Translations under genes and position numbers: made by a program
Source: Amoebophrya sp. A120
Lineage: Eukaryota; Protista; Dinoflagellata
Direction: 5' to 3'
DNA: 64,000 bases
Assembly (NCBI GenBank): GCA_905178155.1
Contig: CAJINV010000021.1
Span: 349,760 to 413,759, forward strand
The notes under the pieces: model-generated
Database searches by the model: none
Told to the model about the DNA's origin: nothing
Seen by the model: the letters and a program-made list of their open reading frames with translations, nothing else
Shown: one piece after another, positions 1 to 63,022 of the stretch
How positions within the stretch are numbered: the first letter of the stretch is position 1
Layout: each line of letters begins with the position of its first letter

Positions 1-3000
1 AGGAAAATCAAAGCACCAGACGGGGGTCACCAACAAAGAATTTTTCTACACACGTCGTGAGGACTGCACGTCGACCAGTGATGGAAAAGGAAATGGCAAC
101 AGTGATCTTTTCCTTTGCGGCGAAAAGGAAAATTCGACCGGAGCAGTGGTTCCTGCTGTGGTGACAGCAGGCAAGGACTGCGCGTATAACGTGAACCATC
201 CCGCGAATTACTCAGTGCGGACGAAACTACAAAATGCTATTAGCAACCAGTCTCAGTCAAAGGGAGAACTCCAGGCGGGAGATGGTTCTGAAGGAGGGGC
301 AGCGGGGGATCACAGGCGGCAGATGCGAGGAGGACACGACCACCAGCCGCAAACGGTAACACAGAAGGAGCAAGTGGTGCCTGCAAAGAGTATCCTCTGC
401 AAAAGTATCGTCTAATTGTGGCCATACATGTCAGACTCAGATCTGCTTTCTCATTCTCACATGAATCTGAGTGACGAAGTCCACTGACTTTGTTTCCCTC
501 TTGACAAAAAATGTGATGAAGATGCAGCTGTAAAGTGCTTTTCCTTTTCCACCTCCAGTAAAATAAAGTAGTACGATAGTAATAGTTAACAGTACTTTTG
601 CATTTGCATAAAGATTGGCTCGAGGCCGCAACTTGTTCCGGAAGTAGATCAAGATCTGCGCATTCGGCAGAAAAAGACCGACTTTATTGTGGTGGCTTCC
701 ACTAGGCTGCAATCGGGGCTCGAGGAGCCGGAGTTGGAAACACTGGCAGAATATCAAATGCAGAAATGTCTGGGTCTGGAATGTTGCCGGGTTTGTCATG
801 CATATTTTGCATGACCCAGGAGCAGGATGTCTGTAATGCACGACCTAGCATCACAGATTTTTAGGGGGCTTTCTGGCGCGTATTCCGCATGAGAAATGCC
901 CTTTCCGTGTGGCACAAAGTAGACTTCTCTTGCTGGTCAGGCAATACAGATTTTTTCAGAGTCCACCAAAGCTAGCATCACAAGTTCCAACCTTCCAGAC
1001 CCAGACACTTTTGCATTTGATACAGAAGAGCTGGGGTTGGACTACATCGTGGAATCTCTCCCACCGCATCCGGAATCGCTGTCCGCTATCTGGTATGCAG
1101 TGCAAAAGCATCGTGCTAGTATAAATTGCAATACAAATTGGCTCAGCATTACAAGTTAAATTTGTGATGCGGATTTCCCTTAGCACTAAGATTTGTATAT
1201 GCATAAATGTACTTCGTTAGAAGTACGAGTGCGATACTTTTGCAGTTCATATCTGGGACCCCGAGGGGATCCGCGTGAGGATCTTGAAGCAATACGTGGC
1301 GGAGCAGGATCAAGATCAACAGCAGCGACAAGGACGTCGCGGGGAGCACCTCGTGCTGATGTGCGGACGAACCACGAGCGGACTTCCCCGGTCATTCAAT
1401 AATCGCCGCGGGGATTCTGCTTCTGGTTCTTGTTTGCGGGCCGCGGACGGACACGGAGTAACATCAAGTACTACTACCTTCGAACGCCGCGGCGGGCGGG
1501 GGAAGAACGCCAACGCGGGTGGTCATGGACGGGGGGAATTGAAACTGCTGATCTGCTGTCTGCAGGGAACCAGTCACATCCAGGCCTTCGCACGGGTCCA
1601 ATACGCGTTCGATCGATTACATCGCATTAACAGTGACGTTTGCCGACGGTTCTCATTTGTTACAGCTGCTCACCAGCAAAGCCGGCTGCTGCGGCGCTCC
1701 ATGGTGATTTCCATCCCGAAGGACATCCTTATGGGACTCTCAAACGTTACATTCTCAACTGTTACATGATTTGTCATGCAAAATGAACATCAACATCCCA
1801 CAAGGTGAAACTACTTCGCATGACAAATTTTTGAAAGGCTAAACAGCGCCTAAATCTGTGCGGAATTTGTAATGCTACAGGTGCGCCCTCCCTGCTTTGA
1901 CTTTTGCCATTCTTGCATCACAAATTCATGTAACAGTTGAGAATGTACTAACAGTTGAGAACGCCATAATCCTCAGCCAGCAACTGGAGGTCTACAACGT
2001 CCCGCGAAAGGATGGCGCTGCCTCCGACGGGGCTGACGCCGAGTCCTTGCTGCCGGTCTGTGGGTACTTCTACACGGGTAGTACTAGTAGTACTGTCGAT
2101 AGTAGAACTGTCGAGCCAGCAGCTGTTATTGAGAAGAGGAAGGAGCAAGACGCCGTGCCTGAAGATAATTCATCTCGTGAACTTCCTCAACACGATGAGC
2201 ACGAGAAAAATACCGTCCCGGTGTTCGAGCATGATGTTGATAACAGCAACTCTAGTATCAAAGATGCAGGCAAAAAATCTACAACTTTCGCGCCAGCTGA
2301 TGCAAAAATCATGCCCACGACCGGCACCTCAACCTCTTTGAAGAAGTCCGCACCGAAGACGGCGAGATTCTTCGTGAAAGAGCAGATAAGGCATCACAGT
2401 GGTCCTACTGTACTAGCCGGACCTCCACCTCCCACACAGCAGCCCCATGTTGAAGATAATCATATTAACGGTGATAAGGTACAAGCAGGGACGATGAGGA
2501 TAAACAACCTGGTCAACAGCAATATTCGAACCGAGCCTGATCAACATCTTGCAACATCAGAAAGGATTGGTGCGCCGACGTCGAGTACTAGTTCTAACTA
2601 TAGTAATGACGATGTCGCCCGTGCCTTGCAGCTGTTCCCTTCCCCACCAGACGAGTTCCAAAATCTAACTTTGGGCGAGGCGTGGGAGTATTGGTTTGAC
2701 TATGTGCGTAATTACGAGAAGCAGGAGGACGAGGACCACCATTCCGACTACAGAGGACCCGGCTGCACAACTGGGAAAGCAGCAATTACAACGCGTGCCA
2801 CGTTCTTTAAGGGTGATGAGGACCACAAGCAAAAAATAAATTCAGACTGTCCGCCCCCGTTTCCACCGACAATTTCGTCCACTAGCACCGCTGCTACGAA
2901 GTTGTACGCGAATAAGACCGGCGCGGGCGGGCGATGGCTTTGCATTGTCCAGGACAAGAAGAGCAGCTCGAAAGTACTGGAAGAAGTTCATGGGGACGCA

Positions 3001-6000
3001 GTCGCAGGTCCGACCAGGACAACTTGCTCGTCGTCGTCCGATCAGTCGAACAGCAAGCAGCAGGCTTTCATCTCCATCCGGCGCCTGCGTATGATTCTGC
3101 AGGGCCGCAATGTCCGCAGCGCGGCGCAACGGTACGCGAGGTTCCACGTTACCGAGGTGCCCCATTTGTCTCTGAACAGCGCGGGGGCTTCCTCGCCAGG
3201 TCCTGCAGGAGGGCTCTCTTGTCATCTACAACGTGGCAGCAGTACTAGTTCAAGCTCGTGTTCTGCTACCGAGGCCGACAATTGTTGGGCGACAGGAGAG
3301 CATTATAACCAGGACAACGCCAACGTGAATAAAGGAGCAGGGGCACCATCAATTTATAACGGTAAAAACGGCAAGATGATGATGAGAAAGAACCAGCGCA
3401 CCCCACGACCGGAGCAGTTCACCCTGAGGCCGGGCTGCCTGTGGCGCGTCGACGGGGTGCAGGAGTCGGCGGACGGGAGGTGCCTGGAGTACACGCTGAG
3501 TTTTTCTCTGTCGACAAACTTGAAAGTGGGCACTCTAGCGGCGGGCGGTGCGACTGCGACAACCTCCACGACCTGTGGTTCGTCGATCATGTCCTCTTCA
3601 TCCGAGGTGGATCTTCAGCGACGCGCAGAACATGCTGGGGCGAGCAGGAGCGTTGGAGGACCTGGACCACCGGGAGCTGCAGCTGTGCCTTCGGTAGTTT
3701 CGGACGTCGAGGGGCCGCATTGTTCGGCCGGCAAGAAAAGGGCCCTTGTCTCGTATGATGTGTTCAAAACCCCGCAAAAGGCGCAAGCTGCAGGGAACAA
3801 TTTCTGTCCCGCTACAGCAAGAACTACTACTTTCGGCGAGGATATTAAGGGCCAGAAGCTACCTTACGGACAGCACCAGCACACCCGCCCGCAGCATAAC
3901 GGAGACGTGGGTCAACATCGACAAGCACAAGCTCCCGCTGGGACGACAGGAGGACAGCGCGAAGAAGGACAACAGCTAGAGCCCCCGCGAAACAAGCACA
4001 AGGCGAAGGACCATCCCCGTGTTGGGGTGCTTGCGAGTTTGCACGATTGGAAGAAGCACCGGAAGATCGCGCTGAAGGTGAAAAACACGTTTTTTCATGT
4101 GGATGAGCCGGCGGTGGAGTCATCGGACGATGAGGTTGTTGTATCTTCTTCATCTACAACTACTTCAAGAGGAAATTCTTCAGGAACAACAAGTAATGCA
4201 AAGACGTTGCACGCCGACATCGGCGAGGAGGAGGACCAGGACCACACAACTGAGCGCCGTGATCAGCAACAACATCCTCGCCTTCGTCCACCTCCCGGAC
4301 GATCCCCGCCGCGGCACGGCTGCGACAAGCAAGTGCGGTCTCGCAGCTTGCAGCCGGACGAACTGAGGCTGACCTCTGCGAGGCGATGCTTACTCACGGA
4401 GTTCTTTGAGGATAGTACGACGTCGAAGATGTTGACACCGCCGCGGGGCCGCGGCGGAGGCGAAGATGCTGAGGTGGAGAAGAATGCTGTTTATGAACAC
4501 TATAATAATTTGATGTCCCCGCCGCGCGACGAGGAGCTGCAAGAATATGAAGACTCTAGGTACAACTGGAATTATGTTGAAACAACGCCAACGGCGCTCG
4601 GCGGAATCAACGACTTCTACTCGTCTAATTCGATGTCAGTGGAGGTCGAGAAGAATTTTTATCCACACGAGGACGAGGGGGAGGAGGAGCAGCTGCACAC
4701 GTCGCGCAGGAGCTTAATAAAGAAGATGCACAACAATTTATATAACAACCACAATATGAACAACATTCAGAGTCAACAGCAGCAGTTGCAGCACTACAAC
4801 CATTACCATGACTGCCGCGGCAGAATGGAGCAGCAATCTATGGCGCTGGCGTGGGAAAGTGTCGCTTTACCGGGCCGACGGTTGTTCGCGGATGGTCCGC
4901 CTCCCGAACGGATCTGGAAGCAGAGCAGCGGGTTTAACCAATGGACCAGCGAGAACATCACCATTGTGGTCACCTGTACGCACCTGGGGTTTGGAGACCT
5001 CTGGATGAAGCTCTGGCTCGCGGGCTACGAACCCGCGGACAACGTGGCGGCCGAGCGCATTGTGAAAAGTGTCGACGGCTGGTCGCAGATGTGCGGGGAC
5101 ATGTGCAACTTGTTGGCTGAAAAGGAAAAGCTGCAGAGCCAAAAAGAGAAAGTGCGTCGAATGATGAAGAACAAACTAGCTTCGTCCACCTCGACTGGTG
5201 GTCCTTGTTGTGCGGAGACAGAAAGATCGATCCACTCGTCATCTTCGTCGGTGGCGGGCGACGCGATGCTGACCGGAATGCATACGAGTGCTGTTAGCGA
5301 GAATACAACGCACCACGAGGAGGACAACGATGAAAATGAATCGGAACATCAATCCACAACGACGCTGAAGAAAACAACTGCAGATGAAACTACATCAGGA
5401 GATCATGACCTTCTTCTACACGAACAAGAAAAGTTTTCACAGATAGTCATCCGCCTGAGAAACTGCAGTGAGGAAATTGCGCAACTGAAGCACAAGATGC
5501 GTTTGCACGGGCTCCGCGAGATCAATGTGGAATATTGGCGGGAGCAGGATGCGTATATCCAGTACCGCCACCTGCCCCACATCTTGTGTCCCCCGACTCC
5601 GACATCCCCTTACAAGAAGAACAAGAGCCGGTCCATTTTTCGCAAGGTGATGCCCAGCGAGCGCAGCACCTCGGTGCAGGTGTGTCAGGATTTGGCGGCT
5701 TTGTCTTACCCGGACAAGACTTTTCTCACGGGCGTGATCTTTGACTCGGAGGCCATTTGCGCCACCTCCGACGGGTACGAACAAAGTAAGAATAACGGAG
5801 GTATGCTAGACAGCGCCAGTGGTAGAAATATGTATCAAATGCAAACACGTCTGGGTCTGGAAGATTCATCCGAGATTTGTCATGCAGTTTTTCCAAGCTC
5901 CGCCAAATCTGGAATGCAGGCCCTAGCATCGCAGGATCTGCAGCGCCTTGGTCGTGATGCCCATTCTGTATGAGAATGCCCTCTCTGGGGCGTGGCGAGA

Positions 6001-7051
6001 AATGGGGACCTTTTGCAAGTCATGCAACACGACAGATTTTAATTTTTGTATGATCCGCAACACGCATCACAAGTTCGCATCCTTCTAGACCCAGACTCAT
6101 TTTTGCAGTTGATAACATGCTGCCCACGTCGATGATCGGGAGTAGCAGTTGCACATCAACTACGAGCTGCAGCAGCTCAACAAGTTCAGTAGTAAATAAC
6201 TCTGCAATTATATCTGAGAAGGGACGAATTATGGAAAATAAAACTGTCGACGTGGAGGCATCAAGTAGCTGCGCATCATCTTCCAACAGCACCTCCGGTC
6301 GGAAAAACCCTTTCCAAGAGGCGGGACAAACCCACCTGAAGGCGGTGGAGTCTTTCCGAATGCTTATGGAGGCGTGTCGTATGAACTGCAAAAATGTCTG
6401 GGTCTGGAAGATTGCCAGGTTTGTCATGCATATTGTCCAGCATGACCCATGATGTCTGTGATGCATGCCTTAGCATCACAGATTCTGCGAGGGCTTTCTG
6501 ATGCTCATACAGCATGAGAAGTGCCGTCTCTGCGTAGCAAAAACTGGACCTATTTTGCTCTTCACGCAATACAGATTTTATGCAGAGTCCAGACGTAGCA
6601 TTACAAGTTGTATCCTTCCAGACCCAGACATATTTGCAAGGCATATGTCGCAAGCTGGCGCAAAACCGCCAGGGCTTTTCCGTGGTGAGTTTGCGGAAGG
6701 TGGGCGTCGGAGTCGAGGGGATCCAGGAGTGGAACCGGTTTCGGGGCGTATGCATTGCAAAAGTTAATAAAGTATCGTGCTAGAAGATGAAGTTGTACAA
6801 GAAATCGCATGACAAACGTTGCCAAAAGGAAAAATGGAACTTGTCACGCCGAATAAGGAATGTCATGCGAGACAACTTGTCATGCGAGACAACTTGCATA
6901 TATATGTTTATACGAAAGCAGCGACCGACATCATTTTTGCACAGCATACGCCACGATTCGCGCGCATTTTGCTCGGGACGGCGAGGAGCACGACGAGCAC
7001 CCGACCTCCAGCTACCAAATCCTGAATTGGGTTATCCTTAGGAAAAAATAA
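1..7051 (+). CDS. Large low-complexity hypothetical protein, 5'-partial, interrupted by 7 introners
   Basis: Frame open from position 2. Removing each element plus one direct repeat joins ORFs 146, 1275, 1897, 6117, 6580 and 6860 in frame (VVPAK|IGSR, TLAE|ELGL, SAIW|DPEG, PKDIL|SQQL, GRNM|LPTS, MEACR|KLAQ, RG|ATIR...RKK*). Confidence 0.75.
391..610. mobile_element. Introner, family B (degenerate)
   Basis: tatcctctgcaaaagta...tacttttgcatttgcata; flanks aagag/aagat; removal restores frame. Confidence 0.75.
752..1022. mobile_element. Introner, family A
   Basis: TIR tatcaaatgcagaaatgtctgggtctggaa / ttccagacccagacacttttgcatttgata; perfect direct repeat cagaa. Confidence 0.95.
1094..1251. mobile_element. 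Introner, family B
   Basis: tatgcagtgcaaaagcatcg...cgatacttttgcagttcata; perfect direct repeat tctgg. Confidence 0.95.
1730..1968. mobile_element. Introner, family C
   Basis: tatgggactctcaaacgttacattctcaactgttacatga...tcatgtaacagttgagaatgt...gttgagaacgccata; perfect direct repeat atcct. Confidence 0.93.
5833..6114. mobile_element. Introner, family A
   Basis: tatcaaatgcaaacacgtctgggtctggaag...ctagacccagactcatttttgcagttgata; flanks atatg/acatg. Confidence 0.92.
6380..6645. mobile_element. Introner, family A
   Basis: tatgaactgcaaaaatgtctgggtctggaag...cttccagacccagacatatttgcaaggcata; perfect direct repeat tgtcg. Confidence 0.95.
6749..6948. mobile_element. Introner, family B (degenerate)
   Basis: tatgcattgcaaaag...tttttgcacagcata; direct repeat eroded (gggcg/cgcca), but a 2- or 5-nt offset join restores the frame. 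Confidence 0.75.
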
Positions 7052-8860: not shown

Positions 8861-11168
8861 TCCAGCGGCACAACGACGAAATGTGAGAAAAACGCACTGA
8901 GGAATATTTTAACTCAGATCCATATGGAAGCGTCAGAATCGAAATCAACAAAATCGAAATAATTTGTGATGCATAAAATCGCTACCAGTTGGAGCCTCAC
9001 CCTCAGTTTTCAAGCGGCGCATGACAAATTTCGGAAGCACCGAATTCCAGTCTGTCATGCTGTTTGGGCAAAGCCAGTTAGGAGAGTACCAAAGTGAGGA
9101 AAAAAGGCCAAGGTTTGTAGACAACGTCATGTTTACAGTGTGGCTAGGGGTGGGCCACCCAGGTCAGCTAGGCATGGGAAGAACGACACACAACGCACAG
9201 ACGCCAAAAAAGAGCTACATGACCTGCCCAGTCTGTCAAAAGAAAGTAGTGCCAAGCACAGACCACTTGCTTTTTCAGTGCGAAGACCCTACGCTAGTGC
9301 AATTGCGAAAAGAACACTTAGGCGCGCCATGCATAAAAGCCATGGATCCATGCATAAGTTTCGTCCGGGAGCGAAAAAACGTGAAAAACGTCCTGAACTT
9401 CTACGAGAAGGCCTCGCAGACACACGGAGGAACTCTGCCCACGGGGCTAGCGAACGCGATCAGAGGGGGACAGACGGTTTTCGACGAGGCGGACTACAAG
9501 GATGTGGCAGAATGGCAACCGGAGAAAAAGCCGAGCAAGGTCCAGGAGGGGGACCTGAACAAAATAGCGAGCAGGATCGGGAGGCTCTAGGAGAGAGACC
9601 GCCAACACGAAAACGAACAAAGCCGACAAACTGCTACGAACGAGGGGACTACGCTCAGCCGGGCAACTTCTCCGAAAAACCTGCACCCAGAAAAACCCCA
9701 CCACCCTTCCCCCCTCGCTTTAGGTCTATCTGGAGGACATGACACCTCTGGCTGCAGGAGCAGTCCCGGGGTGTTAGCGCGGGAGGAGCGGAACCGGTGA
9801 CCAGCTGCGTCAGCCAGGGCACATCGAAACAGGTGGGCCTAGGGCAATGAGGGTGTGCCAAGCGGAAGGTGGTGGAGATGGGAACGGAGACAGAGTAGAA
9901 CTTGTTGAGGCGCTTGTTGAGGCGGTAAAGTAGGTAGAAGCGTGAAGCCACAGCGCATAGTTAAGAAGTTAGAGAGCATGACACTGCGAGGCTCGACCCG
10001 TCCTCGAACGGGGGCGGGTGAATGTAGCAAGCGGTGATCGTGATACAGAGGCTGTCGCTCGTCCGCCACACTAGTTTCCTAACAGCAAGAAGAAAAAACA
10101 AGACAAGGCGCCTAAGCTACTACTAAAGCTTACGTGGTAAAACAGTAGAATAGCCGCGCGCCGCACTCAACCCAGGGGACCCGCTGAACGACGGCCGAGA
10201 GCCCGCCCGGTGAGGAGTTTCCTTATGTTCGTGTTCGTCTGCCCTCCACCCACTGCAGAAGAGCAACCTTGCAGATTTGAACCAGGTCGATCTTTTTCAA
10301 AATCTCTGGTTAATTCACTCCGGTCCGCCTTGCTCTTTGAAGATCCGTGCGAAAAAGCACATGAAAAGCTGCTGCCATGGTGAAGAACGGTTAGTACAAG
10401 CGCAGGCCCTAGAGTGTAACATGAACGGAATCGGGCTACAAGGCCACAGGTAAATCACCCCTGCGTCTTCCGGTCGGCCTTTACGAAACTGACTACAAAA
10501 AACCGCGACGGTAGAAAGGGGGCGGTCTAGTCTACGGTCTAGATCGTCTCCACTACCATTCGAAAAAACGCAAGTCCCAGCTATAGTACAACAGGAGCGG
10601 CATCCGACCCGAGTGTAGTCAGCCGGACCATTTTTAGAAGACGTTGCGAGGTGGGCGGAGAGGCATCACGCGTGCAGTGGAACGAGAGGAAGGCCAGCGT
10701 TCAACTGTGTGATGTTCGTCGTATACTGTCCTGCCTAGTTCACTATGTAGGTTATCTCTCTCTCTCTCTCATGCTGTTTGGGCAAAAAAGGCTACCCCTG
10801 TCATGCTACTTCGGCAGCGCATCGTCTTCCCCTAAACAGGCTTGCAATCAGTCTCATTTGCCTGCTCCCCAATACAGGCCATACGTGCCCTGCATTTTAT
10901 GCATTACAAATTTTTCGATTTTGTCTATTTCGATCCTGACGCTTCCATAATCCATTTAAAGGATGATGGAAGTCGAACAATTTATATTTTACCTCCAATG
11001 AAGATTGCATTGCTCTCCCTCTTCAATGGTGACCTTGAACAAAAAGCGCTGTCATTTTTTGGTATGAATGATAAGACCCAGCAGAAAATGATAAGAAAAA
11101 TCCTGTATGTGAAAATGATTTGTCAAGGACGAGACCGAGACGAATACGTGCGGGCAAGACCGACCTAG
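8861..11168 (+). CDS. 3' part of a hypothetical protein gene that hosts the introner/LINE composite; upstream exons unresolved
   Basis: After a candidate acceptor (aaaatag at 8860) the frame reads SSGTTTKCEKNALRNILTQIH and continues LKDDGSRTIYILPP...RARPT* once 8923-10949 plus atcca is removed. Confidence 0.45.
8923..10949. mobile_element. Introner, family D, expanded to 2.0 kb by a nested LINE insertion
   Basis: TIR tatggaagcgtcagaatcgaaat / atttcgatcctgacgcttccata; perfect direct repeat atcca; 313 bp without the insert, matching the other D copies (306-311 bp). Confidence 0.93.
9073..10768 (+). mobile_element. 5'-truncated non-LTR retrotransposon (LINE) fragment
   Basis: Flanked by 18-bp duplication tcatgctgtttgggcaaa (9055-9072 and 10769-10786); (TC)n tail at 10755-10770; ORF remnant to 9590 with C-terminal CCHC motif CPVC-x9-HLLFQC typical of LINE ORF2. 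Confidence 0.85.
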
Positions 11169-12743: not shown

Positions 12744-15700
12744 ATGTGGGCCGATGCGGTTTGTCTGTTTGAAGGGCAGCATCTTCATCAGACGGAGCAT
12801 GTCGCGCGTTATACCCCAAGCATCAGGGAAGAACTTGTTCTCAACGAGAGAACTACACATCATCAAGAAACTAGTTCATCTTCGACCACGTCCGGTTTCT
12901 TTATTGCCAAGAACGAACATGAGCAAGCAGAAGAGCTTACAGCTCGTGATTTTTTCCATAGTACTGCTCTTCACAACATACAGGGCCCAGCTACAAGCGC
13001 AACGATCTCCGCAAAGCGACCACGTGAGCCAGAAGTTCTTAACGGCGCGGCCGCGCACCAGCAGGATCCCAGCAGCGTCGGCCTGAAACGCTTCCACAGC
13101 GACGCAGCTGCCAGTGCGGCCGGCGCCGCGGCTTCGTCGCCAGAAGGAACTACGAGCGGGGAGGCAGCGAAGCTCGACGACTTGCTTGGGCTCTCCGGTG
13201 CCGGTGGCTCGAGCTCTTCATCCAGTTTGTGCCCGACGCCCTTGCTACCAATCCAACATCAACCTGGAGGTGGCGCAGCTGGTTCATCTTCCGGGGCCGC
13301 TGGAGGGACGGGGGCAATAAACTACAACACGTCCTCCACCTCTCTGAACAATTTGGTGCTCGGCCCGATGGTAACTTCTGCCTCGGGAGGTGCGGCCGGC
13401 AAAGGTGCGTCTGCGTCCTCAGCTGCTCTGCAATATGGCGCGACCTGGAATTTCTCTGGTGGCAACAGGCCAGCCAGCAGCAGCCACGCCATATGGCCGG
13501 AACAGCCATCGCCCCCGGTCACCGCGAGCGCGCCAGGTACTTAGTATTTGTATCGGGATAGGCTGAAGATGAAGAGTTGTACATGATCAAATTTGTCCTC
13601 CGTTGCTTCTCCGTTCGCACTTGTATCTAATTGCATGCCACAACACATTCATCCTAAACAAGTGACACTTGCCTACCGTGGTTGTAATCGAGTAAACCTT
13701 GTAGGTATTCTTTCTACGATGTACGTGTACCGTTCTACTTCTAAATCTAAAGTAAAGTTAGTGGTACTTTGACTTTGAGTTCGACTTTCTACTCTTCCAG
13801 GTGGTACAAACACCGGTGGCGGGACGGGAACCAATAATCCGAGTCCGAATACGCAGCTAGCACAAATCTTCGCCGTTTTGATATGCACTGCAAAAGTATC
13901 GTATTAGTCTTTCAATCACGTCCCGATGACGATGAATGCTCTCAGGAACATCGAAGTGTTGCTTCCCATGCTGCGAGGTCGTAGGAGCAGAAAGAGAAGA
14001 TATCTGTCGTGCATGATTGCAATCGATGAAGCGCGAATACGATGAACTTTTGCCTATTGAAACAAAGGCGAAAATAAGCCAAGCGGAACAGCCGGTGCCG
14101 GAGGGGGCGGTGGACAGTCCTCCGCGAGTAGTTCGCCCGGGTCGGTGCTAGACAACCTCCTGAACAGTGTGAATGAAAACACCAAGCCTGCGGCCGCTGC
14201 TGGTACACTGAATCTCGGCGGATTGAACATCAAAGAGCAGCCCGTGGTGGCACAACCAGGAGCTGCAGCGCAGCAACCCCCTGCGCCCGCTCCAAACCGG
14301 CGCGCATATCCGCAAAACACAAACAGCGGCGGGGGGTTGTTGACAAATAATCCGGGGGCGGGGGCAGCGCCGCCAAATAATCATGCGGCGATGAATGGGA
14401 ATGCAAATGCAAATCCACTTGGGAATCTACTAAATCCCAATCTATGGACGACTGCGAACAACAACGGCGTTTCCAGTTCTTCATCCGCAAATAATGTCCA
14501 AAATGCAGATCCCGAGGACCCGGTGCAAGCGTTCCTTCAGACCCTTTCGGAGACGCAGAGAAGCGTGAGTCAGCAGCAGATATTAGGCGGAGGCTCGTCC
14601 CTGTTGGCGAACGCTAAAGGCGGAGTAGGCGCTGGAGGCATTCTCCCCACTTCGACAAACCCAGGAGCTGGAACAACAGCCGGCGTAATTAACATTCCAG
14701 GAGCCACTGCAACTGCGGGTGCCGCGCCATCATCATCATCAAGTGGTTCGATCTTTTCCGAGCCCCTCCAGACGGCCGGTCCAGGGAACTCGCAATTCCT
14801 TCGTCCCGCGGACCTCGAGCAGTTGTTTCGCATTTTCGTGCAACGCCGTTGCGCGAAGGGTAAGGGTGCGGGGAAGCCGAGTTTACCCAAGTTGAAGCAG
14901 GATTTTGTGCAGTTTGTGCACACGCTGAAGGGCAAGGCGGCAAGCAAGGGCATGGCGTTTTCCTTCGCCGCACCCGGAAGTGTAGGGGGCACCGGTGGAG
15001 GTGGTGTAGCATTCGCAGCTCCCGCCGGGAATATTAACGCAGCAGCGACCGGGTCCGGGAGTGCGGTATAATTTTCAATTTTGATTTGTGGTATAGTTCT
15101 TTCTTTGTCATGCGTTTTGGTCTTGCGTTTATTTTTGCTTCGTGTTGTTCATAAAAGTAGTTCTTCCCACCGATCTTCGAGCGTCGGCCGCCGTGTCCGT
15201 GCTTGTTGTACTTACATTCTCACAACTGATGATGCAATTTGTCACAACAGAGTGGAATTCAACACCATCTCGGTCATCTCCCTACTGGCGGAATAAAGGG
15301 TGGACCGCAAGACGGCCTGCGCTCGGCGTCCAGTCTTTCGCGAGTATTGTAGGAATCAATGGGAAAAGATAAGCAGACGATGCTCAACACAAGAATGAAA
15401 ATAAAGTTCAACTCTTTACATCAGATTGCTTGATGTGCTGCGTTACAAATAAAAAAGTAATTTATTTATGAAAAAAAAAAATCCAGTTCTTCGTCCCTCC
15501 CGTCGTCGATCAGGCCCAGAAAGACCTGCGCGAGAAGGAGCGGCTGGCGGATCAGAAGCTCAAAGAGGTGGACGCATTGCTCGCGGAAGTGAAGGCCCGC
15601 TCGGAGAAACTGGCAGAGCGCGAGCAGGCGGTGAATAGTACTGGAGTTGTATCTAGTACTTCGAGTAGCAGCAGTGGAGGGCCAGGCGGAGGTGGTGGTC

Positions 15701-18559
15701 CTACGGCTGTCAAAACCAGAGCAGACTTCGCGACTGATGAAGGTACTTACTTTTCATCTGAGTTGTGATGTTGTTCACACGCAGGCTGAGTGTTGTTGTT
15801 TTCCTTTCATTCGTTAACAGTAGGAGAAGATAGAGAGTAATCCATGATACACAAGGACACATGTACATCATCAAACTACAGAATATGAAGCCTACAAAGC
15901 CGCGCCAAACAAGTATTCTGCGAAAGACTGGGAGCAGTGGTGGTCGTGGGTGGCAGACGGCAACGCTCCAGCGCCCGGAGGTGTCATGTCTTGAATTTCA
16001 GCACGAAGAAACTGTTTTTCTTTTTGTAGCGGTTTGTCCGCCAGGAGGAGGTTTATGGAAGTGTCAGAATCGAAATTGACAAAATCGAAATGATTTGTCA
16101 TGCATAGGATGGTTTCCAGTTCGAACCCAGTTTCTAAGTGGCGCGTCACAAATGCTGGCGGTGCCTAAATCCAGTTTGTAATGCTGTTTAGGCAAAGAAG
16201 ACTGATTCCCTCATGCTGCTTTAGCAGCTCGAGCTATAACCCCAAACAGGCTTACAATCGGCCTCACTTGCCTGCTCTGCAACGAACGCAATTCGCGTCA
16301 TGCATTTCATGCACCACAAATTTTTCGATTTTGTCAATTTCGATCCTGACAGTTCCATAAGGTTCGCGCTCTTCGTATTAATGGATCTATAGTGAAGATT
16401 TTTTCCGTGCTCGTACTGCATCACAGTCCCACTTCAAAGCGTGTTCTTGAAGATGAGAGTGACGTGTCAATGATATGGTTGCGTGAAAGGAACACTTTCG
16501 GATCTTCAACAGGTCCACCGCAGCCGAGTACAGCTACAGGCGGCACCGTCCAGCAGAGCGCCGCAAGCTCCTCGACCGCCGCGCCCCCGAATCTTGCCGG
16601 CTTTCCGCACTTTCAGCCCCAGGCGTTTGGGGCGGCCACGAAGGGCAATTTCCACCCTCAGCCCACCGGGATGCTGCAGCATCTGCAGGCCAGCATGGGC
16701 GGCAAATTCTTCGCCCCGGGGAAGTTTGGAAGCAAAGGCGGCAAAGCGGGTCCGGGAGGTGCCGCAACCGCTGGAGCCGCACATCACATGCAGCAGCAAT
16801 TCAACCCTGCTGCACTCCCGAACTTCGGCGGTGGTGGTCCAGGTGCGCCTCACAAGGGCGGTCTGGGCGGGGGCTACAACAACCATCATCTGAAGGGCGG
16901 CATGATTCCAGCTCCAGGCTTGAACGGCATGGTACCTCCGAAAGGTGGGAAGAATTCTCACGATCACTTCACACCGAATCATCACATGCAACATCACGGG
17001 AAACCCGGAGGTCCACCCTACAAGGGAGCTGGTGCACCAGGGATGTTGCCGCAGCACCAAGGCGGAGGTCCTCCGCCCGGGATCATGCCTCATCTGAACG
17101 GAGCCGGTCCGCCGAGCGGTGGCAAACCCGGGGTAGGGGCTGCAACTAGCAACCCAACTGCTCAACATCTGCCGTTCGGCCACCAGCCACACGGTAGTAC
17201 TACCGGCGGCCCTGTGATGAACCAACAACGAAACAATACAGGAGGGTCTGGTGGTCCTGGCGCCGGTGTTGTAGCTGGTGCTCCTGGGAACAACAATGCT
17301 AGCAATAATTCGAGTAGCACAACGACCGGAGCTGGTGCGCCTTCTTCTACATCAAATAACGCCAGCGCGACGACCACAACTACACCCAAGGGGTCGTTTT
17401 TGAACAGCAAGGGATATGCAGCGTTCAACCCAAGCCCGGCGGTGGTCAACGGTGTCGGTCCTCCGGTGCATCATAGCAACATGCCGCTCGTCGGACCTCC
17501 AATGAACGGTGCGATGCCCATCCATCCGATCGGGGCGGGACCACCTCCTGGCATGGTCGGAGTCGGACCTCCCAACATGATACACCACCAGCATCAACCG
17601 ATGATGAATGGCGTTGGCCCGCCGGGGACGATGAATGGCGTTGTGCTAGGAACTGGACCTCATCAGCCTCCTCCCGTGCCTCCGGCCCCACCAGTACATC
17701 AAGCGCCACCTCCTCCGGAGCCGAAAAACAGTTTTCCCCCGGACCAAAACCCGTTTCCGGATCAGCAGCTGCTCCCCAGAAGCGACAGTGCCGCGAGCGA
17801 AAACAAAGAGAACAGCAGCCAGCAGATTCTCCCCGCTATCGCGACCGACATGGCGGCAGGAGGCTCCACAGCGCTTATCGCACAGAAAGAGGGAACTGGG
17901 GCATCATGTTTGTTGCATCATGCGAAATAAAGATGAACAATAAGTTTTTATAATGCTGCATCCAGGGTGGGTCTATAACTATATCTTTTTCTTTCTGCAG
18001 GGATCCAAAGTCCAATAACACTCAATCTACCTCCTGCATGTTGCAGTGTTTTGAATGTAGGCAACATGATCTAAGACAAGAACTTGATGCTCTAGTACAA
18101 CCTTTTTCCCGCACCATACTCCTATCTGTGTTAAAAAGCGTTCATGGAAACAGTAACAGCACTGCTAACGTTCTCCCTGCGGCTGCGAACCATGTGAAAG
18201 ACTCGGGGATCGCGATTGACGTGCGGAAGCCGCTGAGTATCAATCTAAGAACGAACGTTTGCGCCCCCGCGGCTGGAGAGAACAAGGAAAACGCTGATCC
18301 TGTTGGTGTTCTTGACAAGGAGAATCAACAACCCGGGATCGTCGATGCTCAAGCTGGTGCGGAGACTAAGCCTGATACAACTGCCGGAAAATCAGCAGAG
18401 CAACTGGCGCAGGAAGAACAGGAGCGGAAATTTCAAGAAATTTTGGTTGGCACATAAGATCAAACTGTTATTGACTTATTACCTACTTCATCAAAACTGC
18501 AGGAGCTGAAGCGAGCATGCAATAACTCCAGGAATAATAAAACACCACCAGACAATTGA
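12744..18559 (+). CDS. Gly/Pro/Asn-rich low-complexity hypothetical protein, multi-exon (boundaries approximate)
   Basis: ORFs 12741, 14145, 15568, 16392 and 18038 can be linked by GT-AG introns (e.g. 13537-13800) and two introners (FAVL|NKGE, QEEV|RAL). Confidence 0.6.
13882..14056. mobile_element. Introner, family B (degenerate right end)
   Basis: tatgcactgcaaaagtatcgta...acttttgccta; flanks tttga/ttgaa; a 5-nt offset join restores the frame. Confidence 0.75.
16054..16359. mobile_element. Introner, family D
   Basis: tatggaagtgtcagaatcgaaattgacaaaatcgaaa / tttcgattttgtcaatttcgatcctgacagttccata; perfect direct repeat aggtt. Confidence 0.95.
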
Positions 18560-56900: not shown

Positions 56901-58017
56901 CCGGCAGAGCACTCTGACGAAGTTACTTGCGGAGTCATTCCGGAAGCCGCCGACACGTACGTGAGTTGTTGCGAAGTAGATTTTTTTAGTGCTGTTTTTT
57001 GAGCGTCTAGAGCGGGGAGAAGGTGACCGCTGCAATTCATAGAAAATACAGCGAAGCAATGACAATGACTCAAGAAAAAGTCTGAAAACGGTATCGCACA
57101 TCAAAACACGAACCTCTCAGCCCCGAAACCCGTGATAAACCGCCTTCCCGGCACCAGTCCCAAAACCGCCCTTGCGATGGCATCGCGCGCGTCGCAATTG
57201 GGAGGACCTGCGCCCGTTGATCAGCTCCTCTCGACGACGTCGCAAGAAGTAGAAGGCACCGGGTTCTCATTCGCAGACGGTTCTTCGTCCGGCGGTCCAA
57301 CCCGATTGATCGGCGTGATTGTCACGATATCGCCGAACGTTACCGACATCGAGCACAGTCTGACAACTCTCCGCGCCGGCTACGGAATGAAAAACAGCAA
57401 GCAGCAGTGCACACACAGTGTGAAACTGACGGATCTGAAAAAATTTATCGGCGAAAAGGACATCCGCTACGTACCGGTGAACAAGTGGACCCCAGATCAG
57501 GTCGCACTCTGGGTCACGTCCCTCCAGCCCCCGGCACCAGACGGAAAGTCGGAGCTGCCGAAAAAGCTCCCGGGGGGAACGACTGGGGCGATGATGCTGC
57601 GGTTTCAGGCAAATCGATTTCACCAGGTGTTTATGCATTGCAAAAGTATCGTACACGTTCACGTACTCGTATAAATGCATTACAAATTTCCTCAGCATGA
57701 GAAATGGAATCTGTTGTGCTGTTTTACCTTAGGAAGAAGATTTTTTGTCATGCATATTTACAAGTACTACGACTACGAGTGCGATACTTTTGCGCAGGAT
57801 AGTGCTTGGCGACAAGCTCGGGGAGAAAGTCTACACTATTTCCTGAAAATTAAGCACTTCCATCCAATTTGTCATGCAGAACATGTAGTAAACGTAAAGT
57901 CTGTGTTTGTCATGCAAAAAGTAGATCATGGGGATGGTTAGAAATTTTCAGGGAATATACACCCAACTTCGCAAAGAAGTGGAGACACCGACGGCCTTCA
58001 TATATGATGATGACTAG
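53932..58017 (+). CDS. Kinesin motor protein, kinesin-13-like, with N-terminal MGGCC and C-terminal SAM-like segment
   Basis: Motifs FCRKRPL, FAFDCAFDE, P-loop GQTGSGKT, switch I NDTSSRSHAV, switch II-like LVDAAGTER, EINASLYALKECIR, FRQSTLTKLL, VTISP; canonical introns plus two introners. 3' end approximate. Confidence 0.88.
57632..57801. mobile_element. Introner, family B
   Basis: tatgcattgcaaaagtatcgtac / gtgcgatacttttgcgcaggata; flanks gtgtt/gtgct. Confidence 0.92.
57837..57957. mobile_element. Introner, family K (single copy here)
   Basis: tatttcctgaaaatt / aattttcagggaata; perfect direct repeat tacac; join KVYT|QLRKE. Confidence 0.9.
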
Positions 58018-60502
58018 ACTTTTTTTAGGTGGATCATACGAGGTTGGTGGCTGGCACCGGAGTAGATCGGAGTCCTGGATGAAAAAACGATTGTTTATTG
58101 ATCTTCATACCAACCCAAAATTACTGACACCATTGATAAATTCTTCCTTTTACCAAATCCAAATCTAGCGACATTTTACCACTTCTCAGACCGCGAGGCT
58201 GCTGCTTGGTTGTCGTTTCAATGTGTTTTGTCATAGTGCTATGTTAATGTTTCTCACATGAACACGCGTAGTGCTGCTCCTGTCTCTTCGATCTCGATGG
58301 GAATGGGTTCTGTTCAACAACAAAAAATTCGCCGTCGACGATGATTTTTTTTTGCGTTCGTCGCAGCTTATTTCATACGGACGGAGCGGGAGCTGTGCAA
58401 CAGGCAGGGATGCGTTGGTGCATGATATCGTGATTTCTGATGATGTAGTGATGAAATCCAAGAACCAGCTGTAATCGTCTGTCTGGCCGCGCCCGGTGAT
58501 AATCACCATGAACGAAGATGCCGTGCCAACAATTCACATACCAACTGCCGTAGCAGAGAAGCGGAAGGGAAATAAGAAAGCTCATCTTTAGGTCCCCATA
58601 ATAAGACCACATCTCAGTAGTTTCGCATGTTAACGAGTGGCCCTGTGCGAGTGTGTCAGATCTGCGTGTAGGACACTTTGCTGTTGAGCCTGATCTTTCT
58701 TTCCTTACCCCAGAGTGAGCTGCAAGGAAGTTAGACTAGTGGCTGGCAAAAGTGAATGGTGGTGAATGCACCGAAGAGAAAGATGCACCGAAGAAAAAGT
58801 TGGGGTGGTTGGCGGAGATTGAGTGGCCTACGCTGGCGTGATGGGATTTTTTTTTTTCAATTGTGAGCGCAGAGCGGAAAATGGATGAATTTATCCTACA
58901 TAGAAATACAAATGCAATTGTTGCTTCAGCGCTTGAATTCGAAATTTCTCAAGTATTAATGTAGAAAAACCAAAGTAGGCGTCTTATTCTATTCATTCCG
59001 GTGGCTTCCTGGTCCGATTTTGACTCGCGTCACACACAGACATGACATGCGGAATTGAGTGGAGCAGCATGGCAAGACCTTCGCGGCGCAAAGGCAGCGG
59101 GTGCGGCTGCGCTAGTGCCTCGCGCGGTTTCGCGTCTTCCTGTAAATGATGGCGCGCGCGCTTCTGGCTTTCGTAGTCGTCCTGCGATCCGCGCGCGTCC
59201 GTTCCCGACTTCACTCTGATGCAGGGCGAGGGTGCTCTTTGTTCTTCGTGGCATGAGGCACGCCAGCGCCGTTCCCCAACCGGCGACACAACGCGCCCCG
59301 GATCGCGGCGCTGGATGGCACCCACGCGGCCCGGGGGGCTGGCGCGTTAGCCGGAAGATCGTTGGAAAGGGCCGCGCTTCCTTCGGGAGGGCGGCCTGCC
59401 TTGCCGGCCACCGCGACCGCGACACCGGGCGGGGGTTTTGGGTGTGGCGGCCTTATTGGGCAGACGGGCGACGCCACGGATTACAAAACTCCGCAGCCGC
59501 CAGCCGCTGAGCACCCGCGCAGCCCCCCCCCTGCTGCCTGGGCAGGGCTGGCCCTTGCTGCCCGGCGCGGCCTGGTTGCCCCTGGCCTTGCCCTGGTTAG
59601 TGTCGTCGGACCCCTGCCCCGCGCCACGCACCCACGTGCGCGGCCGGCCCGGCCCTCGCGCCGGTCTGTTTTTCGAGCGATGGGCCCGCGCCCCCTCCTG
59701 CAGAAAGTTAGTAAGCTGGGCCGGTCGGGCCCCCGCCTACTTCAGCTCAGAGCCGGGCGGCCCCTGAGCGTCGGCCTGCGCTGTAGTCCACCCCTCCTTC
59801 CTTCGTTGTGGAGCCCCGGCGAAGGCCGCGGCGCGGTTCCGAGGGAGCTCGCTCCCCACCATCGTGGCCATTATCTGTCGTTACAAACATACAGGCCCGC
59901 CGGGGTTGCCGCCAACTGGCCCTTGCTCCGGCGCGGTTTTCTGCAGACGCCCAATTTTTGTCCAGCCAGAGCAAAAGCCATCCTGCAGCCCCTTTGCTGG
60001 AGGTGCTTTGTGTTCGCTTGCAGCCTTGCATACTATGATTGCCGGATGCAGGAGAAGCAGTTCTTCATCAGTGTGCGACGACGATTTCGCCGCTGTGCAC
60101 TGAAATATGAGCGAAGCCGAGGCAACACGAACATCACTTGTGAGAAGTGTACTACGAGACGAGGAGTTTCTGTGATTACCTGAGTAGTTGTTGATCATCA
60201 TGACCTATCATATTGATATTTGAGCTCGGGCGCGGCCGCGTTGTAGTGCACGACGGGCGAGGCGCGCAGCGCACATCTCTGTTGCGGGATTCCCGGAGCG
60301 CCGGGTGATATGATGCCTGTGTCACGGAAAGGCGTCATGTCGCGGCTCTGGCTGCCTGTGCCATCAATTGCGTGACTTTGTGGGCGAGATGAAATGTTGT
60401 GCTGAGAGAGTGTAGTTCACCTTCACGACTTCCATATCAGTGCCACAAGGAGTGCAGGACCGCTGCAGCGGACCTGCCGGAGGTCGTATATCGGGCAGCG
60501 CC

Positions 60503-63022
60503 ATGGAAAGTTTACGACCTGTGCCGTTACGGATGTCGGGGAAACAAAGCCTTGCCTCGTTGCTCATCTGCAGTTTTCTGTTTCCCAACAGCACGACTTC
60601 CCTCACCTCCGTCGCCGCTCTCTCGTTCGGCGAGGCACTTCTTCAGAAACGGCGCCAGCGCGCTGACAAGTGTCCTCCGCCGGCGGACTGCAAGTGCCAC
60701 TGCGAGTGCCCCGCGCCGGTCTCGAAGCCGCAACCTCCGCCCGGCAAACCCTGCCCCTTTGTCCCGATCCCGCCGGGCGCGAAACCGAAGCCCCCGGCCG
60801 AGACGCGATGCGCGACCGGGTTTGTCAAGCGGGCGAACCTAGAATGTGCCGAGATCACACCGGAAATCATCACCGAGTTACAAAGCGTGGTCGCCGTGAA
60901 ACTGCAGGAATTGAACCTCGCCCGGACCAACTTTCAAGCGGAGAAGGATCTGATCGCGAGTGGAAAACCCAGTGGCAACAAGGAGTTGCACCGGAAACTC
61001 CTCCTGAAAGCGCACGACGCCTACGAAACCAGCCTGGACTATCCACAAAAAAGCACCCATCGCCATTCAATTTGTCATGCAAAATATTAATATGCATCAA
61101 ACGCAGTGTTTGTCATGCAAAACATAGATGGGGATGCGTGTTTTTACTTGGATATGGACATGCTTCTGAACGCGTGGGATATGGCGCCGTTCCGGAAAAA
61201 GAAGGCCGCGGCCGACGGTCCCGTAGCGGAAAAACCGGAATTCGTGAGTTTCGCAACCCTGGTTTCTGCCGACGAACAACAAACGCAGCCGCACTGCGAG
61301 AGTTGGACTTCTTTACTGGAAAACTACGACGTTAGCGAAAAGGACTGTGCGGTCATGTGTCGGCAGCAGCCGAATTGCGTCGGCTTTGCGAAGGTCAAAC
61401 CCGCAGAAAAGGACTTTTGCGTGTGGTTCACAGCAAATGCGAATACAAACAATCAAGCTCCTAACAAGTGCTTCGACCCCTCTTCCGACCTCAGCGCGCA
61501 GTACTTCAAGAAGAACCGCGAGGAACAAACCGACCTGCAACGACCGATCTCCAAGGACATGTCGGGGCTGTCCCGGTTGCAGGACATCCTCGCGATCCAG
61601 ATGGCGGACACGGATTTTGATGCGCACGGGGCGATATCAAATGCAAAAATGTCTGGGTCTGGAACTTGTGATGCGTCCTGTGGGTCACACAAAAATCTGT
61701 GTTGCGTGATCACCAAGAGTTGTGCTTTTTTGACCAACATGAGCGGGAGTTTCTCATGCGGGACAGGCATGGCGGAGACTTCGCAGAATCTATCATGCTA
61801 GGTCCTGCATTCCAGACCTCATGGGGCATGAAAAATATGCATGACAAATCTGCACTCTTCCACACCCAGACATTTTTGCAATGCATAGGCGACGGACAAA
61901 TTTGACCAGTGGAAAAACGAGGGCATCAGCATCGAGGACACAAGTACAGTATCAACTGTAAAAATGTCTGGGTCTGGAAAAGTGCAACTTGTCATGCTAA
62001 ATCTGAATCATACAAAAATCTGTGTTGCATGATTACGAATAAAGCTGTTCACTTTTGAGAAGGCCGAGAGGCAGTTTGTCATGCGGAAAAGGCATAGTAA
62101 AGATCTCACAGAATCTGTGATGCTACGGCATGCATCACAGACCTCACACGTCATGCAAAACCTGCATCACAAGTCTGGCATTCTTCCAGACCCAGACACT
62201 TTTGCAATCCATATACAGTGGAACAGTTTCAACATTCCAAACAGTTGTACACGGACGAGGTGGTGAATACGAAGAAGGTGTATGCAATGTAAATTCCCTG
62301 TACATGATGTACAAAATGCATGACAAATTTCTCTAACTTGCAGCGTCCAACTTGTCATGCTAGACTAGGAGTGAGGGCAAGTTTTGTCATGCAGAAACTG
62401 CATTTGCACGTGTGCGAGAAATTTACTGTGGATAAGGTGTGGATACAGATGATGGAGGTGGCGCGGAGGTTGGCAGAGGAAATCCGGGATGATACGGACG
62501 CCGTCGACCCGCTGCCGGCACCGAAGCCGGTATTTATGGTGTACTTTCCGTGTGTGTAGAAATGGAATGGAAGAATTATGTATCTAACTCTATTCGCATG
62601 TGAATGTGAAGAGGTCGTGACCGCGTGTTCGTGGTCCGCGTTTACAACGTTGGTTTATCTTTGTCAACTACTATCTCAATCGTTATTGCCATCAACTACT
62701 TGTTTATATGTCTTCATGAATGTACAACTTCTACGGATTATGAATGTTGGAGCTGCATCTTCTATTGATGATGTTGTAATCACGACAGGCACCAGCGCCC
62801 CCTCCGCCGAAGAAGAAACCCACGTGGGCCGACCATCCCAACTACGACGATACAAAGTGGTCGCAACGGCACCCGGACTGCCCACAGGGACCGCCGTGCG
62901 TCTGCGACTGTAACTGCCGCGGAGCCCCGCCGCAAAACTTCATTGACCCACCACCGCCGCCACCGAAACCGTGTCCCACAGTGGACCCACCGCCCGCAGG
63001 GGGAATCACGCCGATTCGATGA
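60503..63022 (+). CDS. Putative secreted Cys/Pro-rich protein with PAN/Apple-like domain, 4 introners
   Basis: Hydrophobic N-terminus; CPPPADCKCHCECP and CPQGPPCVCDCNC motifs; SEKDCAVMCRQQPNCVGF...CVW resembles PAN/Apple; joins SLD|MLLN, HGA|TDKF, TST|VEQF, KKV|WIQM; GT-AG intron about 62530-62788. Confidence 0.72.
61040..61154. mobile_element. Introner, family I
   Basis: tatccacaaaaaagcacccatcgccat / atggggatgcgtgtttttacttggata; perfect direct repeat tggac. Confidence 0.9.
61635..61887. mobile_element. Introner, family A
   Basis: tatcaaatgcaaaaatgtctgggtctggaa / ttccacacccagacatttttgcaatgcata; perfect direct repeat ggcga. Confidence 0.95.
61950..62213. mobile_element. Introner, family A
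   Basis: tatcaactgtaaaaatgtctgggtctggaa / ttccagacccagacacttttgcaatccata; perfect direct repeat tacag. Confidence 0.95.
62281..62434. mobile_element. Introner, family H
   Basis: tatgcaatgtaaattccc / gagaaatttactgtggata; perfect direct repeat aggtg. Confidence 0.9.

Follow-up and report, generated by a model that had tools for sequence, protein, structure and literature searches.

The question raised by the window, a 64,000-bp stretch of the Amoebophrya sp. A120 genome, is why short intron-forming elements of seemingly unrelated sequence carry the same internal motif, and what kind of factor would read it. There are 59 exact matches to TTTGTNATGC in the window, counting both strands, compared with a mean of 0.68 (maximum 4) in dinucleotide shuffles, and 58 of them lie inside 37 short TAT...ATA elements that together span 8,352 of the 64,000 bp (Table 1); at least one exact copy is present in 31 of the 37. 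The enrichment is likewise present under a null with the elements' own composition (500 runs; mean 0.31, maximum 2, compared with 55 observed in the 36 elements tested). The statement of the preliminary description that the motif is repeated in both orientations and is rare outside elements thus holds, and ten of its 12 example coordinates are exact; the site listed at 1771 lies at 1770, and the copy at 37241 has one mismatch. The GT-AG intron that holds the remaining exact match begins GTATAA and is possibly an ancient element. In 146 loci from a second assembly (0.8 Mb, partly overlapping, and recruited with the family A TIR, so that family A is over-sampled), 670 distinct exact motifs lie within matches to the families, which make up 21% of bases, and 36 elsewhere; counts below that go beyond the window combine it with these loci. 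The Rpb1 of one of the loci is a divergent dinoflagellate-lineage protein that matches one EukProt entry at 73% and others at no more than 49%. No published description of the motif came to light. Viral contigs searched with the family A TIR gave no matches, and a paired-motif scan of viral contigs gave 43 matches and no elements, the two motif-rich ones being simple repeats.

Table 1. Elements and exact motif matches in the window (empty strand cell, none assigned; sizes in brackets are element + additional nt removed)
Feature	Position	Strand	Details
Old B-type element	391–610		0 exact motifs; TSD 4/5; without RNA cover
Family A element	752–1022		1 exact motif (792); 7 matrix sites; TSD 5/5
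Family B element	1094–1251		1 exact motif (1161)
Family C element	1730–1968		4 exact motifs
Family A element	5833–6114		1 exact motif; TSD 4/5
Family A element	6380–6645		1 exact motif
Decayed B element	6749–6948		1 exact motif; TSD 2/5
Family D element	8923–10949		313 bp own sequence; 3 exact motifs; interrupted by nested insertion 9073–10786
Old B element	13882–14062	+	0 exact, 1 degenerate site; spliced, AT..AA intron 13881–14066, joint unambiguous
Exact motif outside recognizable element	15104–15113	+	38 nt from TAT of GT-AG intron 15066–15250
Family D element	16054–16359		2 exact motifs; nested in GT-AG intron skipped at joint 15978->16511
Family D element	21565–21872		2 exact motifs
Family B element	21921–22076		3 exact motifs; direct pair, 31 bp spacing
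Family D element	23191–23501		3 exact motifs
Family A element	23551–23818		0 exact, 6 matrix sites
Family A element	24314–24565		2 exact motifs
Family B element	26525–26674	+	4 exact motifs; spliced (150+5 nt)
Family E element	26902–27136	+	2 exact motifs; spliced (235+5)
Family J element	27507–27635	+	0 exact, 2 degenerate sites; TSD 3/5; spliced (can now be read as GT..AG)
Family C element	34336–34591	+	1 exact motif (young sister: 4); TSD 3/5; spliced (256+5)
Old F element	35206–35476	+	0 exact motifs; right end ATT; spliced (contig arithmetic)
Family A element	35592–35844	+	1 exact motif; spliced (contig arithmetic)
Family F element	36782–37101	+	1 exact motif; spliced (contig arithmetic)
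Family G element	37139–37310	+	1 exact motif; spliced (contig arithmetic)
Family B element	37642–37869	+	3 exact motifs; spliced (228+5)
Family B element	37965–38115	+	2 exact motifs; spliced (151+5)
Family A element	38240–38517	+	0 exact, 3 matrix sites; spliced (278+5)
H (B-related) element	39082–39272	+	Left end TAG; 2 exact motifs; spliced (191+5)
Family I element	39785–39994	+	1 exact motif; spliced (210+5)
Family B element	40036–40194	+	3 exact motifs; spliced (159+5)
Family A element	44516–44777		TIR 20/20; 1 exact, 6 matrix sites
Family F element	44823–45101		6 matrix sites, single orientation
Family B element in kinesin gene	57632–57801		2 exact motifs
Family J element	57837–57957		2 exact motifs, direct orientation
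Family J element	61040–61154		2 exact motifs, direct orientation
Family A element	61635–61887		1 exact motif
Family A element	61950–62213		1 exact motif
H (B-related) element	62281–62434		2 exact motifs

The fuller consensus of the motif is AA-YYTGT[C/G/A]ATGC, and about 2–6 such sites of 10–12 bp, in both orientations, tile each entire element of 110–320 bp. Among the 385 elements analyzed from the window and the second assembly, the motif is carried by 13 families with largely unalignable interiors: when the motif and the terminal 14 nt are masked, alignments of 68 of the 78 family pairs are no better than those of shuffled sequences. The remaining 10 pairs do align better, and a TAT end and a 5-bp duplication are common to all families, so that the earlier label "unrelated" is too strong. 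The element ends are inverted repeats, with TAT at 69 of 70 ends in the window, and the terminal geometry TAT-N7-AAA is shared between families (A at position 13 in 67 of 70 ends, with departures from the A-tract in families C, D, and E). The target-site duplication (TSD) matches at 5/5 positions in 23 and at 4/5 in 10 of the 37 window elements; an exact 5-bp duplication is found in 235 of 305 young copies, a 4-bp one in two and, with end placement scored on 5 bp, an exact 6-bp one in none. TSD GC content is 57%.

The elements correspond to introners already published for Amoebophrya sp. A120. As far as the accessible parts of that report go (Farhat et al., 2021; PMC7789003), A120 has co-oriented genes and non-canonical introns of ~240 nt that have short direct repeats and TIRs starting with TAT + 7 nt + AAA; the window shares these features, its elements agreeing in their TIRs (TAT + 7 nt + A-tract), direct repeats, and non-canonical splicing. 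The same parts do not describe an internal motif, and they give direct repeats of 3–5 nt with variable splice positions, whereas we find mostly a 5-bp duplication and joints that fit one splicing rule (see below). In the portions available of a later survey (Gozashti et al., 2025; PMC12130899), A120 family 38 has a 5-bp TSD, TA/TA termini, TIRs, and Copia/Gypsy homology, most A120 families are classed as "TIR DNA, unknown," and several mechanisms are proposed for A120 introners; the lengths given for other A120 families, 107–321 bp, overlap those seen here.

The spacing of the motif from the termini, to which the preliminary description had pointed as a check, is ordered. Across 530 ends, the start of the first inward-reading site peaks at 31–32, 39–43, and 51–54 bp from the element end, and its phase at 10.5 bp is strongly concentrated, both over 11 families (R = 0.89, reached in 0 of 20,000 simulations) and over six clusters of related families (R = 0.96, p = 1e-4); in one family the site lies at either 43 or 54 bp behind an identical TIR. 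Direct motif pairs 31–33 bp apart, with dissimilar spacers, occur in 12 of 13 family consensuses (20 pairs; under random placement the mean is 2.9, and the best 3-bp window never exceeds 13). Outward-reading sites have no phase relative to the ends (R = 0.23), the best-fit period on consensus ends is 11.05, and the internal step in the largest family is 7–9 bp rather than 10–11 bp.

In each of the 13 families, the columns that make up the motif are conserved more strongly than the other columns of the interior, a comparison that is partly circular in that the motif columns were picked by matrix match. The ratio of motif to background change is 0.29 on internal and 0.47 on terminal branches, similar to the inner TIR (0.25 and 0.58, respectively), with long and short terminal branches alike (0.46 and 0.48). 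The excess ratio is 0.34 among young copies, 0.35 (0.22–0.54) in middle-aged copies (n = 50), which thus retain the young value, and 0.75 (0.49–1.31) in the 31 oldest, and decay in old copies is not clearly neutral. Site count shows a weak trend with TSD decay (rho = −0.155), reversed in the nine copies with 0–1 TSD matches. TAT is near-invariant in the tree test, a result biased by how ends were found and of no evidential weight. Because the motif is conserved in all 13 families and its position and spacing are shared, the earlier proposal of one trans-acting factor serving all families is supported.

We think it probable, on these sequence patterns, that the motif is a double-stranded DNA binding site for a single transposase, likely of the integrase type, that would mobilize all the TAT...ATA intron-forming elements. 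Such an enzyme would sit on a single face of the helix, three, four, or five turns in from each end, and would assemble a complex for cleavage at TAT and for insertion with a 5-bp stagger; motif and spacing would be maintained by selection for mobility while other family sequence drifts, and this selection would relax once a copy has inserted. Among known systems, IS3EU/GingerRoot elements are reported to have TA..TA termini and GC-rich targets, as here, but usually a 6-bp TSD; the termini of Ginger1/Ginger2 are TGTNR rather than TAT, and, with Ginger TSDs of 4 bp and TDD-4 and TDD-5 TSDs of 5 bp, only TDD-4/5 agree with the duplication found here. The accessible accounts of IS3EU/GingerRoot and Ginger2/TDD do not mention a phased internal site array. 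Tn7 has several short transposase sites inside each end and a 5-bp TSD, as in our elements, but TGT/TGA termini and a different enzyme, and the sites in our elements tile their whole length, so that the likeness is an analogy of architecture and not homology; the same is true of Galileo, in whose long TIRs multiple internal THAP-domain sites are described as giving specificity to a different enzyme.

The elements could also owe the motif to a host double-stranded DNA protein (a bending, chromatin, or transcription factor) that is recruited for transposition, the transposase itself reading the TAT ends only. Phasing, strand symmetry, and post-insertion decay fit this equally well, and no transposase is reported for A120 in the accessible parts of PMC7789003, where general transposase-mediated mobilization is ruled out. 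Nor did we find an intact one in a scan of the 135 longest of 252 long locus ORFs or in 10 window ORFs, and the search that the preliminary description had suggested, for long TAT-ended elements carrying the motif and a transposase gene, was unsuccessful: of seven long TAT...ATA candidates in the loci, none gave a transposase ORF; two that were read fully are distinct short elements that chance had paired, and the others were judged from site maps and ORF lists. No protein relatives were found for a window exon, and an Rfam search returned nothing. On the other hand, the motif hardly occurs in host DNA (1 of 59 window matches and 36 of 706 locus matches lie outside elements), an unexpected pattern if a host factor had targets of its own, and the single cluster of three exact motifs that lies outside the families comes immediately after an integrase-like fragment. 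This truncated 139-codon fragment (L019:2748–3164), followed by five motif copies, resembles an integrase C-terminal domain: its ten best named Atlas matches fall in one family/clan, led by PF18697, with 146–163 of 256 features shared, where true family members usually share at least 170. It has no left end and no DDE core, gave no Pfam match at E ≤ 1 and no relative in a sequence search, its single-sequence fold is uninformative (mean pLDDT 49), and it could derive from an LTR retrotransposon. We regard a host factor as unlikely.

The preliminary description had left open whether the factor was a transposase DNA-binding domain, which fits, or an RNA-binding splicing cofactor, which does not. 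The elements leave RNA as element + 5 nt, and the joints of these non-canonical introns (11 directly listed in the window and four obtained by contig arithmetic) fit the rule N-TAT...ATA-NNNN, in which the intron runs from one base before TAT to 4 nt after ATA; exactly one copy of the duplication is therefore removed and the reading frame restored. This rule predicts the T at +2 that all nine predominant A120 non-canonical donor sites carry (PMC7789003, Table S4, in the part available). The runs are presumed to be RNA in that their contigs skip GT-AG introns; one DNA-like run (X5) reads through the element at 13882, two others (X8 and X9; 2026, raw) cover element copies only and not window genes, and the gene at 1–7000 has almost no RNA cover. 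A role in RNA, either as a cofactor site or through pairing of inverted copies that joins the non-canonical splice sites, would account for the constraint that persists in middle-aged copies and along terminal branches; motif copies in some elements are predicted to pair with each other (probability up to 0.98), and PMC7789003 reports that no U1 snRNA was detected in A120, which makes an unusual cofactor plausible. Against this, motif mismatch does not differ by RNA strand (0.114 vs. 0.117 in young and 0.123 vs. 0.119 in older copies, strand being assigned for 322 of 491 copies), and a family that has its six sites in a single orientation, with little pairing predicted between them (0.07 for the element at 44823), is inserted in exons six times in sense and seven times in antisense. 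Old copies lacking an exact motif are spliced precisely, those at 13882 and 35206 with one degenerate site left in each, a copy nested in a GT-AG intron retains two exact sites, and helical phasing is not expected of single-stranded RNA. A difference between 5′ and 3′ ends (two vs. eight changes at the first T) is biased by how ends were found and carries no evidential weight. Strand-symmetric conservation and the splicing of copies without an exact motif thus favor a double-stranded DNA site, and we consider a role in RNA improbable. Motif decay in old but still spliced copies, named beforehand as evidence against a shared factor, is largely what we see; it counts against the splicing branch of the proposal and not against a transposase, since decay following insertion is what one would expect of a transposase site. 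Splicing would then be a separate process, likely one that reads the element ends.

That the motif is a functionless leftover from a single ancestral element that had 31-bp internal repeats, as the similarity left in 10 of 78 masked pairs and the shared TAT-N7-AAA geometry might suggest (common descent could explain part of the spacing), is largely refuted by the low rate of motif change on internal branches, as well as by the (partly circular) conservation in every family and by spacers that have kept their length while their sequence diverged.

Returning to a transposase that would bind the motif, the shared motif and geometry suggest that the TAT...ATA introners form a single system, as opposed to the several mechanisms proposed in PMC12130899. 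More tentatively, these introners, whose families number in the hundreds and which by the published count occupy up to about one-sixth of the DNA, may all be passengers of one undescribed integrase-type transposase that recognizes their ends by a helically phased, Tn7-like array of 10-bp sites rather than by TIR sequence. The TAT end would then also act as a relaxed 5′ splice site, and every insertion, with its 5-bp duplication, would be removed scar-free by splicing. Both the mobility and the splicing of A120 introners are stated as open in the available parts of the source papers (PMC7789003; PMC12130899). A shared phased DNA site would merge many "unknown" families into one system and separate internal mobility signals from splicing signals at the ends, and the N-TAT...ATA-NNNN rule would settle where introns begin and end in cases that the 5-bp duplication leaves ambiguous. 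The motif would also serve as a bait to purify the mobilizing protein and as a signature by which to find the autonomous element.

The motif is real: on both strands of the window together, TTTGTNATGC has 59 occurrences where 0.68 are expected, and 58 of the 59 exact matches lie inside 37 elements (together 8,352 bp), which were curated from a search for TAT...ATA pairs that have inverted ends and repeats on either side. Thirty-six of these measure 115-320 bp; the remaining one, of 2,027 bp, contains a nested insertion. Ten of the twelve example coordinates in the preliminary description were exact, and the proposed comparison with canonical introns gave 145 matches to the motif matrix (matrix sites) in elements versus 2 in nine GT-AG introns (2,164 bp) seen in RNA-like contigs, that is, contigs from runs taken as RNA by guess, of which all those with cover come from one study. 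The elements begin with TAT, after which most have 7 variable bases ahead of an A-tract, and a target-site duplication (TSD) of 5 bp flanks 235 of 305 young copies. The available part of PMC7789003 describes Amoebophrya sp. A120 introners with the same TAT start, A-tract ends and flanking short repeats; by this match the window elements are those already known introners.

Further copies came from 146 overlapping loci (0.8 Mb, single assembly) pulled with the terminal inverted repeat (TIR) of family A, which contain the same families as the window (best identities 69-95%). Window and loci together give 385 elements, i.e., 13 families of at least three members, one pair and ten singletons, and 367 of the 373 family members carry at least two matrix sites. 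The families had been called unrelated; once motif and ends were masked, 68 of the 78 pairs of consensuses indeed show no more likeness than shuffles, but 10 do, which together with the shared ends makes the families divergent relatives. A related locus encodes a divergent dinoflagellate-type Rpb1, and this, with the match to the published introners, points to Amoebophrya sp. A120 as the organism.

Spacing from the termini, suggested earlier as a check, proved to be phased. At 530 element ends, the first inward-reading site lies preferentially at 31-32, 39-43 or 51-54 bp and less often at distances between these, and the phase at 10.5 bp is R = 0.89 with one mean per family (11 families; 0 of 20,000 simulations) and 0.96 with one mean per cluster of related families (6 clusters, p = 1e-4). 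Whole-turn spacing (~10.5 bp) is the usual sign that proteins bind to the same face of B-DNA. One family has its site at 43 or 54 bp behind an identical TIR, and the largest at 32 or 39-41 bp, an imperfect step; the period fitted freely to 19 consensus ends is 11.05, and no phase was seen among outward-reading sites. Direct pairs 31-33 bp apart number 20 across 12 of 13 family consensuses, with dissimilar spacers, a count never given by random placement, even in its best 3-bp window. The most likely reading, and one we think probable, is that the motif is a putative transposase site; a site for a host DNA cofactor ranks second and is unlikely.

Scanning 135 of 252 long locus ORFs and 10 window ORFs revealed no transposase domain. 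Outside family matches there are 38 exact motifs, with one cluster of three, in locus L019; this cluster lies after a 139-codon frame. Among named Atlas clusters, those that match the frame best are integrase C-terminal domains (0.92, PF18697), and searches against Pfam, PDB and proteins gave no relative. Five matrix sites oriented as a right end follow the frame, no left end is present in the fragment, and the stop is followed by a purine tract, so that the fragment may be of LTR origin. This integrase-like fragment with sites is a candidate lead on the binder. In a separate study, Gozashti et al. (PMC12130899, available part) record A120 family 38 as having "5-bp TSD, TA/TA termini" and Copia/Gypsy homology.

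The single trans-acting factor first envisaged could also have been an RNA-binding splicing cofactor. At least ten window elements are skipped as element plus 5 nt in RNA-like contigs (among 15 of the 44 joints), which also skip GT-AG introns; contigs of 1,689 and 1,497 nt fit to the base the model also removing the elements starting at 35206, 35592, 36782 and 37139, and 35481-40460 minus nine elements and three GT-AG introns gives 750 codons without a stop. Where the duplication copies differ, the transcript retains positions 1-3 of the upstream copy (joints 34333->34595 and 27504->27639) and position 5 of the downstream copy (39076->39273), and at the sole unambiguous joint, 13880->14067, the intron begins one base ahead of TAT. 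The intron is therefore N|TAT...ATA NNNN|, joined after position 4, with a joint after position 3 excluded by 13880->14067 only. The nine predominant non-canonical A120 donors in Farhat's Table S4 (PMC7789003, as far as available) all have T at +2, consistent with this rule. Four of the nine GT-AG introns begin GTAT, and three table entries (27506-27639, 39434-39592 and 15066-15250) show signs of introners becoming canonical introns.

That the motif itself is an RNA signal, ranked third, seems improbable, and that it is a relic, ranked last, is the least credible reading. Transcript-sense UUUGUNAUGC and GCAUNACAAA sites are equally conserved (0.114 versus 0.117; in older copies, 0.123 versus 0.119), and no family shows orientation bias among the 203 of 491 copies called exonic by a crude coding model that leaves 288 uncalled or non-coding (smallest p 0.18); by that model, the family with six same-direction sites has 6 sense and 7 antisense copies. 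Old copies 13882 and 35206, which align to families B and F, respectively, are spliced, and each contains a single degenerate site but no exact motif. Predicted pairing between motif copies runs from 0 to 0.98.

Site counts are 1.00 in 344 copies with perfect TSD, 0.95, 0.78 and 0.79 at TSD matches of 4, 3 and 2, and 0.89 and 0.98 at 1 or 0 (9 copies). In trees of seven families, the motif-to-background ratio of change is 0.29 for internal branches; for terminal ones it is 0.47, whether these are long or short. Compared with their nearest young neighbours, 50 middle-aged copies have an excess ratio of 0.35 (0.22-0.54) and the 31 oldest one of 0.75 (0.49-1.31). Constraint relaxes with age, short of demonstrated full neutrality, because with sampling so sparse the terminal branches still contain part of the transposition history.

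Coordinates of features in the window and in loci L013 and L019 of the second assembly
Feature	Position	Observation
D element	8923-10949	holds 1.7-kb insertion 9073-10786 (16-bp flanking duplication, (CT)n tail at end)
Frame	8970-9590	CxxC...H...C motif, presumably as in non-LTR retrotransposon C-termini; no match in Pfam search
Variant positions	8596, 8665, 8827	A in window, C or T in RNA-like contigs; 8827 differs also in DNA-like run, so probably repeat copies rather than editing
GT-AG intron	15066-15250	motif 38 nt from TAT
J element	27506-27639	now GT..AG via changes in own duplication
GT-AG intron	39434-39592	right-end remnant at 39566
GC-rich stretch (67-68%)	29100-31000	no cover in RNA-like runs; long frames without Pfam match
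GC-rich stretch (67-68%)	59000-60000	long frames without Pfam match
Tandem paralogous genes, function unassigned	35481-40460; 41648-45790	9 versus 2 element insertions
Methyltransferase	L013:2627-6082	C-5 cytosine DNA methyltransferase domain across two adjacent frames
GC-rich stretch	L019, opening	resembles both window stretches
Direct repeats, 35-50 bp	L019:1190-1239, 2699-2748, 3698-3747	two adjacent insertions between them break host frame
Integrase-like frame	L019:2748-3164	in second insertion
Possible ATA end	L019:3591

Among known systems, as far as their available descriptions go, IS3EU/GingerRoot has TA..TA ends as here and a TSD usually of 6 bp rather than 5 bp, TDD-4/5 shares the 5-bp TSD, and Ginger ends are TGTNR, unlike TAT; Tn7-type ends and Galileo each have several internal enzyme sites, comparable with the site arrays described here. 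Each named superfamily has a defining feature that the elements lack. No paper listed in the literature searches, which covered openly accessible text, describes the motif or its phasing, and both, with the N|TAT...ATA NNNN| splice rule, appear new. The elements would behave like non-autonomous integrase-type DNA transposons, and the differing insertions of the tandem paralogues serve as natural empty-site controls.
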